64,000 bases of DNA. Source: a virus (taxonomy: Duplodnaviria > Heunggongvirae > Uroviricota > Caudoviricetes). The stretch's first letter is position 1, and each line of letters begins with the position of its first letter. Below the pieces are notes generated by a model that was not told the DNA's origin, ran no database searches, and worked only from the letters and a program-made list of their open reading frames with translations. A program made the translations under genes and the position numbers. Positions 52,245 through 53,397 of the stretch are shown here, piece after piece. The DNA lies in the IMG/VR virus record IMGVR_UViG_2718218131_000011, positions 20,026-84,025 of that record, one strand, 5' to 3'.

Positions 52245-52946
52245 CTATCCTTGCTGCGCTTGGGAATTTGAAGATGACGTTTTTTCTGTGCCACTATTGG
52301 TTATATTATCTGTGGTTTCGTGAATATCTTTTCCTGGTACAGTCATATCAACAATTTTATATAGCCCTTTTCTCAGACCTGTCGTGGCATCTTCGTCGAA
52401 AGCTGTATAAATTGTGAACATTAGACCAACAGAAAATGCAGTAGCAAAAAGTTTAGGTACGCCAGAGAACAGAAACTTCATAAGTCTCCACAATAAATCA
52501 AGGATTTTATCCCAGAGATGCTCTGGCTCTTTAATTTTTTGGCTGTAGAGAACCGCACCTTTGGACAGCTTATTTAATGCTTTTTTTTCGGCAATTTTTA
52601 ACTTTTTTTGCGCTAGTTCAAGTTCTTTATCATAGTGGTTTTTTATTTTAATAATTTCCGCATTAAACCGTTTCGTCATGTTATGGTTAGCGGTGAAAAT
52701 ATAAGCGTCAAGAGTGTTTTTAGCTTTATCTCTAAAAACATCTAATTGCTTTTGAGAACTAATGCAATAGTTGTGATATTTTGCTAACTCCTCATTGATC
52801 TCATCTTCAGTCTTGCCCATCTTACGAGCATTATCGGCTATTTCATTTTTGAAACCTTTGTAAATCGTGTATGAAATTAGTTGCTCGATGTTATTGGGGT
52901 CTTTTACTAATTCAGTAAACACCCATTGCTTTTGCTGTTCAATCAT
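52245..52946 (-). CDS. hypothetical cargo protein with C-terminal transmembrane segment(s)
   Basis: 233-aa ORF in AT-rich DNA; Lys/Glu-rich helical N-terminal domain; hydrophobic LWRLMKFLFSGVPKLFATAFSVGLMFTIYTAF. Confidence 0.55.
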   Translation of the reverse strand: MIEQQKQWVFTELVKDPNNIEQLISYTIYKGFKNEIADNARKMGKTEDEINEELAKYHNYCISSQKQLDVFRDKAKNTLDAYIFTANHNMTKRFNAEIIKIKNHYDKELELAQKKLKIAEKKALNKLSKGAVLYSQKIKEPEHLWDKILDLLWRLMKFLFSGVPKLFATAFSVGLMFTIYTAFDEDATTGLRKGLYKIVDMTVPGKDIHETTDNITNSGTEKTSSSNSQAQQG

Positions 52947-52957
52947 TGCGCACCAAA

Positions 52958-52981
52958 CAAAAAAAAGCCCCGATAAGGGGC
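52958..52981 (-). terminator. intrinsic terminator between the 130-aa and 233-aa cargo genes
   Basis: Minus-strand GCCCCTTATCGGGGC followed by TTTTTTTT. Confidence 0.55.
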
Positions 52982-53004
52982 ATTAATCATGTTTTATGAA
53001 AGCA

Positions 53005-53397
53005 TCAAACCTTGATGGTTTTACGAACTTGTATGAAAGCTTCTTGAAAATATTTTCGACTTTTGCTTTGCGTAAGTACACTGTCCGTAAATGCTTTATT
53101 AATTTTAACGGCAGAAGAACCTGTGCCAGACAGTTTCTTGATAACGTCTGCCTGTTTAGCCATCACTTTTCCAGCTAAAGATGCACTTTTAGTTATATGC
53201 TTGCTGTTAGTGACTATTTTTTTTGCAGCGACACTCGCCACGGCTGCTTCAGAGATCTTACGAATCTCTTCCGGGCTGAGGTCTGGCATGCAATGATAAT
53301 TAGTCATATTGTGCTCCTCTATACGCCCAACAATGTTATCACTTGTATCCCAAAAATCATATATTTTTGATGTGGATACTGCTTTAGTGTAATTCAT
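53005..53397 (-). CDS. hypothetical cargo protein
   Basis: 130-aa ORF in AT-rich DNA, no recognisable motif. Confidence 0.5.
   Translation of the reverse strand: MNYTKAVSTSKIYDFWDTSDNIVGRIEEHNMTNYHCMPDLSPEEIRKISEAAVASVAAKKIVTNSKHITKSASLAGKVMAKQADVIKKLSGTGSSAVKINKAFTDSVLTQSKSRKYFQEAFIQVRKTIKV

Follow-up and report, generated by a model that had tools for sequence, protein, structure and literature searches.

A mobile two-gene cassette with an intercistronic terminator in P1-like phage-plasmids, possibly a toxin/antidote-like module

The window analyzed here is a stretch of 64,000 nucleotides from a Caudoviricetes record of IMG/VR (IMGVR_UViG_2718218131_000011, positions 20,026 to 84,025). At window positions 52245 to 53397 a first-pass annotation, made from the letters alone, had placed two co-oriented, AT-rich cargo genes separated by an intrinsic terminator, and had taken them for a possible abortive-infection (Abi) or exclusion module. 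Both open reading frames (ORFs) are present on the minus strand, at 53397..53005 and 52946..52245. The surrounding region is part of a P1-like phage-plasmid. Eighteen phage records match the 3' end of the query at 93–96% (dbn, or glt, of P1 and P7), and so do 476 of 5,426 complete E. coli genomes, where the matching replicons are nearly all plasmids of ∼90–120 kb.

Comparison with phage P1 shows the two genes to be an insertion. The late tail/baseplate operon of P1 runs in the order 26-25-7-24-6-5, so that gene 5 is its last gene; according to the P1 annotation, dbn converges on gene 5 and ends 46 bp from it, with a GC hairpin, a bidirectional terminator, between them. Homology to P1 (blastn) stops at 53431 and restarts at 52231, and a 1,199-bp block stands in place of 75 bp of P1 that held the gene 5/dbn terminator and the final codons of both genes. 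The GC content of the block is 36.4%, compared to 51.5% for gene 5, 50.0% for the dbn remnant and 47.4% for the window. The features of the interval are as follows.

52232..53430, minus strand: block inserted relative to phage P1 (blastn against P1, P1 annotation, GC content)
54044..53412, minus strand: gene 5, window copy
53308..53397, minus strand: in-frame extension that makes the 130-aa ORF, probably untranslated; carries the promoter-like element and the 5' untranslated region
53333..53341, minus strand: extended -10 element TGATAACAT, promoter-like, 26 nt upstream of the small gene ATG
53314..53319, minus strand: Shine-Dalgarno GAGGAG of the small gene (read from sequence; the AGAGGAGCG context is common to orthologues)
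53005..53307, minus strand: small gene, 100 aa (alignments, AlphaFold2 (AF2) model, codon-position pattern)
52958..52981, minus strand: intrinsic (Rho-independent) terminator/attenuator, GCCCC-TTATC-GGGGC (5-bp stem, 5-nt loop) followed by T8 (terminator scan)
52951..52954, minus strand: weak Shine-Dalgarno GGTG of the large gene, directly after the T-run
52245..52946, minus strand: large gene, 233 aa (alignments, HMMER, AF2 model, hydropathy)
52395..52475, minus strand: codons of the hydrophobic membrane segment, aa ∼158–184, KFLFSGVPKLFATAFSVGLMFTIYTAF (alignment, hydropathy)
∼51723–52238, plus strand: dbn remnant, frameshifted and N-terminally truncated, window copy

An identical block was found in nine of the 5,426 complete E. 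coli genomes. Four further genomes carry a second allele at the same gene 5/dbn site, its large protein 48% and its small protein 44% identical to those of the window. With these 13 genomes set against the 476 that match dbn, the cassette is carried by ∼3% of E. coli P1-like plasmids, and all copies except one are on such plasmids. It is absent from P1 and P7, and a tblastn search with both proteins against 50,697 phage records (INPHARED) gave no matches. We conclude that a self-contained cassette of two genes, horizontally mobile, has inserted between gene 5 and dbn, where the late tail operon of P1 ends. The label of cargo given to the genes is supported by their foreign composition, their insertion relative to P1, and their movement as a unit among phage-plasmids, prophages, integrative and conjugative elements (ICEs), other plasmids and chromosomes, described below.

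The two proteins and the terminator between their genes

The first gene had been read as 130 codons long, and this required correction. Its true start is almost certainly the internal ATG at 53307 (M31 of the 130-aa ORF), giving a 100-aa product. GAGGAG lies 6 nt upstream of this ATG, and the first ATG, at 53397, has no Shine-Dalgarno sequence. Orthologues all start at an equivalent M(T/S)xRRMP, tblastn matches of diverged copies begin at residue 27–37 of the 130-aa ORF, and the 100-aa form is the one called by PGAP and by the gene callers of the protein databases. Given in addition that the 30-aa extension is conserved in no orthologue, we rejected the 130-aa start.

The hairpin and T-run reported between the genes are real, and comparison shows them to be more than a local accident. 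A GC-rich hairpin followed by a T-run was found in 23 of 27 distinct orthologous intergenic sequences, where the scan predicts by chance ∼0.04 sites per 65 nt on one strand, or ∼0.04 per spacer. The stems themselves differ, with at least 15 different 5' arms (GCCCC, CGCCCC, AGCGCT, TGCCCC, AGCGCTCC, AGCGCCCC and GCGCCTCC among them), and the loops vary also. The position does not: the end of the hairpin/T-run always falls 14–23 nt before the large-gene ATG, and the GGTG ribosome-binding site alone lies between, 4–8 nt upstream of the ATG in most orthologues. A fixed position kept by changing stems, at a frequency far above chance, indicates that the terminator is under selection. Because the 14–23 nt gap leaves no room for a separate promoter, the large gene would be transcribed solely by read-through of the terminator. 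The earlier suggestion that the hairpin serves differential expression of the two genes is thus strongly supported by comparison. No terminator was found 3' of the large gene in the window copy.

Orthologues have in common, ∼30 nt ahead of the small-gene ATG, the pattern ATGCAA-N16-17-TGnTA(G/A)A(C)T; in the Klebsiella copy the downstream part is TG-TATAAT. In the window copy the -35 is poor and the extended -10 alone is kept, and a consensus promoter scan of the window did not list the TGATAACAT element. The element is a putative promoter of the cassette.

The small protein is basic (18 K+R versus 7 D+E) and has no transmembrane (TM) segment, in keeping with the soluble product first described. 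The alignment has a conserved helix at each end, LSPEEIRKIS..AVA.VAAQKIVT at the N-terminus and LAGSVLSQS.GR.YF.EAFNKVRK at the C-terminus, joined by a variable, disordered, basic, S/K/G-rich linker of 0–80 residues. The AF2 model has helices at 12–28 and 80–98 and a low-confidence linker, with a mean pLDDT (predicted local confidence) of 64. Pairwise differences by codon position were 1007/898/1591, and this third-position excess shows the small gene to be coding. The protein diverges fast; a single-sequence word search found two matches, and a profile built from ORFs upstream of large-gene homologues found 70 clusters. It matches PHROG 34496 over its full length (E = 3.6e-76), a family annotated as "unknown function". 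A Serratia relative of 143 aa (P0213; L024 7001–7432) carries the C-terminal helix motif GVQKSLAGSALSQSEGRN in three tandem copies, which hints that this helix is a modular binding unit.

The large protein begins with a conserved N-domain of ∼75 aa (KKWVFxxLV..D..GLIAYALYK..K...A..LR..G..E.EI...L..FHD), followed by a variable coiled coil of ∼70 residues, a hydrophobic segment (WL.SG..G..A...) and a short tail. In an alignment of 80 homologues Y29, K30 and K33 are invariant, and V9, L13, Y26, A37, H58 and G162 nearly so. Placed on the window copy, the layout is N-domain at aa 1–75, helix and coiled coil at 65–138, amphipathic helix and TM segment at ∼144–184, and a tail of ∼50 aa. AF2 models residues 20–138 as helical with pLDDT >90, of which 65–138 form a single long rod, and the membrane part with lower confidence. 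The proposed membrane anchor holds for the family, in that a single strong hydropathy peak near residue 169 (median 2.32) occurs in 97.5% of the 80 homologues. The window copy is the weakest of them, with a Kyte-Doolittle 19-residue maximum of 1.47, and the ∼50 residues beyond the segment make it C-proximal rather than terminal, as it had been described. The protein is predicted to be single-pass. Since there is no signal peptide, the simplest topology would place its ∼150 N-terminal residues in the cytoplasm and the short tail in the periplasm.

Relatives of the large protein are widespread. A word-indexed search gave 33 clusters, all from Enterobacterales and all "hypothetical", and an exhaustive HMMER profile search gave 215 clusters at 50% identity, mostly of 180–250 aa, with named matches in Vibrio, Salinivibrio, Shewanella and Photobacterium. 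A genome-wide search for related loci, which used a narrower alignment than the 80-sequence one, added Pectobacterium, Rahnella, Rosenbergiella, Rouxiella, Pantoea and one Prevotella metagenome-assembled genome (MAG). The protein has a full-length match to PHROG 25194 (E = 6.6e-126), likewise annotated as "unknown function".

Distribution and decay of the cassette

In every Gammaproteobacterial locus examined, including those whose large proteins are only ∼25–30% identical to the window copy, the small gene precedes the large one by 45–86 nt and is read in the same direction. The Prevotella MAG has a recognizably related small ORF that overlaps the large-gene start (TAATG). Judged by gene order and sequence, the pair is a conserved cassette of Enterobacterales and Vibrionales, with one diverged copy in Prevotella. 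The small gene is unannotated in two plasmid records, Klebsiella michiganensis NZ_CP048109 (IncF; a 58-aa ORF, L048 4761–4937) and Photobacterium damselae NZ_CP090491 (an 80-aa ORF, L006 ∼5611–5853); small ORF, terminator hairpin and large gene are all there in both.

The sites occupied are diverse. In P1-like elements the cassette stands behind gene 5, in its two alleles, and in one such element of Pantoea eucrina between repL and ddrB/darA. In prophages it occurs in lambdoid nin regions, in either orientation and sometimes antiparallel to the phage genes, and at the tail-fibre/umuDC end of Cronobacter prophages. Other copies lie in a Pantoea island with a type I restriction-modification system, a KAP NTPase and AbiH; in an Enterobacter island, between a type II CBASS (cyclic-oligonucleotide-based antiphage signaling system) operon and a trio of TerB, BrxC-like and DEAD-helicase genes; in a Dickeya ICE with ArdC, CcdAB and the same trio; in an Enterobacter plasmid near dcm/DUF4928, HNH and DUF3800; and in a Klebsiella plasmid near MazEF. 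In Serratia, Erwinia and Pantoea there are solitary copies among housekeeping genes, which indicate that no phage partner genes are needed. This wide distribution excludes a virion or P1-specific role, and it matches that of defence, exclusion and toxin–antitoxin (TA) cargo.

The trio consists of a 769-aa TerB_N/TerB/TerB_C protein, a BrxC/BrxD-like ATPase of ∼438 aa and a 732-aa DEAD/Helicase_C protein. It adjoins the cassette in the Dickeya ICE (L007 1–4507) and in the Enterobacter island (L021 8251–14075), elements that are otherwise unrelated.

Remnants of gene 5 suggest a route of spread. Pieces of the gene 5 C-terminus, 55–69% identical over 70–83 aa, immediately precede the cassette in three elements: a Pantoea plasmid (L004 ∼5140–5373), a Pantoea defence island (L011 ∼7153–7377) and a Dickeya conjugative element (L007 ∼7195–7380). 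A 13-aa trace at the corresponding place in Cronobacter (L008/L010 ∼7366–7404) was non-significant (E = 0.20). The remnants suggest that the cassette may have escaped from P1-like phages by recombination that took along a piece of gene 5, and that these phages were the source of its spread to islands and ICEs.

Where one gene of the pair is broken, it is the large one. It carries a frameshift in Pantoea (L004), is split in Pantoea latae (L017) and split in three in Pectobacterium (L018); in the E. coli plasmid pCUPF12A (NZ_CP182160.1, L054 1002–2489), IS1A interrupts the second-allele large gene ∼66 codons in. All four elements, which are independent of one another, have an intact small gene, and the reverse was not seen in ∼30 distinct loci. 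The sample is small, and the asymmetry is the pattern expected if the large product is costly or toxic.

Possible function

Sequence and structure searches leave the function to be argued from context. Neither protein belongs to a Pfam or NCBIfam family, neither showed homology to structural or housekeeping proteins, and a literature search turned up no description of either protein or its family. PADLOC models matched the window copy at E = 0.002–0.03 only (PDC-M64B/C, LeoBC); when the 80 homologues were run against Pfam and PADLOC the matches were scattered, and the only recurrent ones were to the coiled-coil-rich models LeoBC, JetC, LmuB and ZorA. In fold comparison with PDB and viral models the likeness was limited to long helices. 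Two weak helical matches from a PDB profile search, AopB (0.011) and YaxA (0.024), were rejected as compositional.

We tentatively favor the view that the cassette is an Abi or exclusion module of a toxin/antidote-like kind, in which read-through of the terminator supplies the membrane effector in small amounts only. The small protein would be produced in excess over the large one. The latter would be a potentially harmful tail-anchored membrane effector, and the former its inhibitor, antidote or regulator, docking by means of its two conserved helices. Upon infection or element loss the labile, disordered partner would be titrated or degraded, and the freed coiled-coil effector might then oligomerize and compromise the inner membrane, with an Abi- or TA-like outcome. 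In the window element there may be a further twist: with the native gene 5 terminator deleted, late transcription should run into the small gene, and these P1 late transcripts would stop at the cassette terminator. While the element itself goes through lytic growth, such read-in would increase the amount of antidote.

The evidence that we count toward this view is the anatomy of the cassette, its foreign insertion, the conserved pairing, the selected terminator, the coding capacity of the small gene, the single-pass large protein, the asymmetric decay and the neighborhoods. The last two also favor the Abi or exclusion role proposed in the first-pass annotation, which finds no echo in homology to known defence, superinfection-exclusion or TA proteins. 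Several points weigh against our view. Toxicity, defence and exclusion all lack homology support, the PADLOC matches being weak and typical of coiled-coil composition. The broken large genes number four, and ordinary decay of the longer gene could explain them. Guilt by association is a weak argument, as three of ∼16 independent contexts are plain chromosomal, and defence islands gather non-defence cargo too. The AF2 models are of monomers, that of the small protein at low confidence (pLDDT 64). Attenuation is not universal, since in Prevotella the two genes overlap and there is no terminator. Finally, the -35 of the window copy is poor and its TM segment less hydrophobic than any other in the family, so that this copy may be attenuated or expressed at a low level.

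A bolder form of the same view is that the window holds the founding example of an undescribed, widespread, mainly Gammaproteobacterial two-protein defence or toxin-antidote family, in which a C-tail-anchored coiled-coil effector with a new 75-aa sensor domain is checked by a disordered two-helix protein, their stoichiometry set by the intercistronic terminator. This is conceivable, and we hold it with more doubt.

Of the alternatives, the one that survives best, though we think it unlikely, is a constitutive superinfection-exclusion or envelope moron: a harmless inner-membrane protein that blocks the entry of incoming DNA or some other membrane step, with the small protein as its chaperone or regulator. 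Such a moron would fit the location among or behind tail genes and in the accessory regions of prophages, the cassette's own promoter-like element and foreign GC content, and the family-wide conservation of membrane anchoring. There is precedent as well, HK97 gp15, P22 SieA and T4 Imm being phage or prophage membrane proteins that block injection. However, ∼150 of the 233 residues, including the most conserved domain, are predicted to be cytoplasmic, and the periplasmic tail is short and poorly conserved, so that sensing or acting in the cytoplasm fits better than an injection block. Nor would a harmless protein obviously need a conserved attenuating terminator or an obligatory partner, and the large gene decays preferentially. 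Neither the window protein nor any of the 80 homologues matched Pfam SieB (PF14163) or a YebO/gp15-like family.

Rather improbable, in our estimate, is a function unrelated to conflict, such as envelope homeostasis or scaffolding of a membrane complex, which would make the cassette ordinary accessory cargo. Some copies are indeed solitary among housekeeping or metabolic genes, and there is no homology to any defence family. Against this stand a patchy distribution strongly linked to mobile elements (13 of 5,426 complete E. coli genomes), the foreign base composition, the recurrence of defence systems as neighbors, and a conserved attenuating terminator that keeps the large gene product scarce.

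A pure addiction module, stabilizing plasmids, phage-plasmids and islands by post-segregational killing with no anti-phage role, seems more improbable again. It would share the grammar of toxin/antidote systems, and would account for the frequency of the cassette on plasmids, phage-plasmids and ICEs, its adjacency to CcdAB or MazEF, and the decay of the toxin-side gene with survival of the small one. But P1-like elements already carry phd-doc (PMC10879196), and many copies lie in integrated prophages or alone in chromosomes, where segregational stabilization is irrelevant. TA and Abi roles are in any case not mutually exclusive.

An accessory tail/baseplate or lysis-timing role in the P1 late operon, to which the co-oriented position directly downstream of baseplate gene 5 and the deletion of its native terminator might point, has very little left in its favor; absence from P1, P7 and the 50,697 phage records, carriage by ∼3% of E. 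coli P1-like plasmids, and the copies in lambdoid nin regions, ICEs, defence islands and bare chromosomes effectively refute a virion or tail function.

Neighboring cargo and known systems

The window contains other cargo nearby. In place of the P1 dmt-dbn segment (tRNAs, plp, upl, tciABC, ban and the 5' half of dbn), the plus strand carries at 45912–50114 the genes listed here and, further on, a predicted nuclease gene.

∼45912–47087, plus strand: TnpB/InsQ-type gene, replacing part of the P1 dmt-dbn segment
istA ∼47696–49342 and istB to 50114, plus strand: IS21-family element, replacing part of the P1 dmt-dbn segment

The predicted nuclease gene, at 50578–51513 on the plus strand, is an AT-rich (36.3% GC) ORF of 311 aa with full-length matches to predicted pPIWI-associated nuclease domains (Pfam pP_pnuc_1, E = 1.5e-34, and pP_pnuc_2, 2.1e-33; PADLOC Aga_Nuclease, 1.2e-62). 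No Argonaute gene is visible adjacent to it, its flanks being the IS21 element and the dbn remnant, and it looks like an orphan or stranded partner of a prokaryotic Argonaute. The equivalent nuclease gene in plasmid NZ_CP101271 is interrupted by IS3. Within the dbn remnant, at 52012–52053 (plus strand), there is a perfect 18-bp inverted repeat with a 6-nt spacer, GGCAATGTGTGGAGCGTT-GATATT-AACGCTCCACACATTGCC, whose P1 counterpart at that position is imperfect; an Rfam search of 51500–54000 returned spurious miRNA matches alone, on this repeat.

The dmt-dbn replacement and the gene 5/dbn junction form one variable cargo region of P1-like elements. The junction itself is a cargo insertion site, occupied by two alleles ∼48% identical, in phage-plasmids that matter in Enterobacteriaceae as carriers of resistance and defence genes. 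The cassette is compact (1.2 kb), self-contained and easily cloned. Should it turn out to serve defence or to act as toxin and antidote, the compact membrane-acting systems of prophages and phage-plasmids would gain a new protein family, one without a Pfam or PADLOC model. Were it ordinary accessory cargo, the main value of the analysis would be corrected annotation, in the 100-aa start and in the small genes missing from some records.

In layout the nearest known systems are the type III TA and Abi systems (ToxIN, CptIN, TenpIN, AbiQ). These share with the cassette a single promoter, an upstream partner, a Rho-independent terminator and an effector gene, and both are found on Enterobacterales plasmids and prophages. 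In type III systems the terminator between antitoxin and toxin is described as keeping the antitoxin level above that of the toxin, an arrangement called unique to RNA-antitoxin systems (PMC5086642). That the cassette is itself such a system, with the upstream region as RNA antitoxin, is nonetheless barely credible despite the matching order of parts: it is refuted on two defining features, because the upstream element is a translated gene that evolves as a protein, its peptide motifs kept in copies ∼25% identical to the window protein and no tandem nucleotide repeats detected in 52200–53450 (Tandem Repeats Finder), and because the downstream product is a coiled-coil membrane protein, all-helical in the AF2 model and with no Pfam, PADLOC or PDB-fold match, rather than a ToxN/AbiQ-like endoribonuclease. 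Type II TA systems are compatible in gene order and in having a disordered small partner, and Pfam and NCBIfam searches found no known toxin or antitoxin superfamily and no DNA-binding antitoxin domain.

Like a phage moron in the sense of Juhala and Hendrix, such as HK97 gp15, the cassette is an extra transcription unit of deviant composition between adjacent P1 genes and encodes a membrane protein in a tail-gene neighborhood. Its promoter-like element, an extended -10 in this copy, may be a promoter of its own such as morons have. It differs in having two genes, in the internal position of the terminator, in a large protein that is mostly cytoplasmic, and in the lack of similarity to gp15/YebO or SieB.

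Among two-component membrane Abi systems, lambda RexAB too is carried by a prophage and joins a membrane protein to a partner in the cytoplasm, and the route from a cytoplasmic cue to membrane damage proposed for the cassette would resemble it. RexB, however, is multi-pass and is the smaller of the two Rex proteins. By contrast, the membrane protein of the cassette is predicted to be single-pass and itself bears a large cytoplasmic domain, and there is no homology between the systems.

Colicin operons have an internal terminator before the lysis gene, which encodes a small, potentially lethal membrane protein and depends on read-through for its expression. The cassette too has an internal terminator just upstream of a membrane-protein gene, but the two sets of proteins are unrelated, and the cassette lacks an SOS-regulated bacteriocin gene.

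Set against these systems, the cassette most likely belongs to a known category, the toxin/antidote or Abi/exclusion cargo of mobile elements, and what appear to be undescribed are its protein families and a terminator-set ratio within a protein-protein pair. If it is such a module, terminator-set stoichiometry would be a device used by protein-protein pairs as well as by the RNA-antitoxin systems to which the arrangement was held to be unique (PMC5086642).

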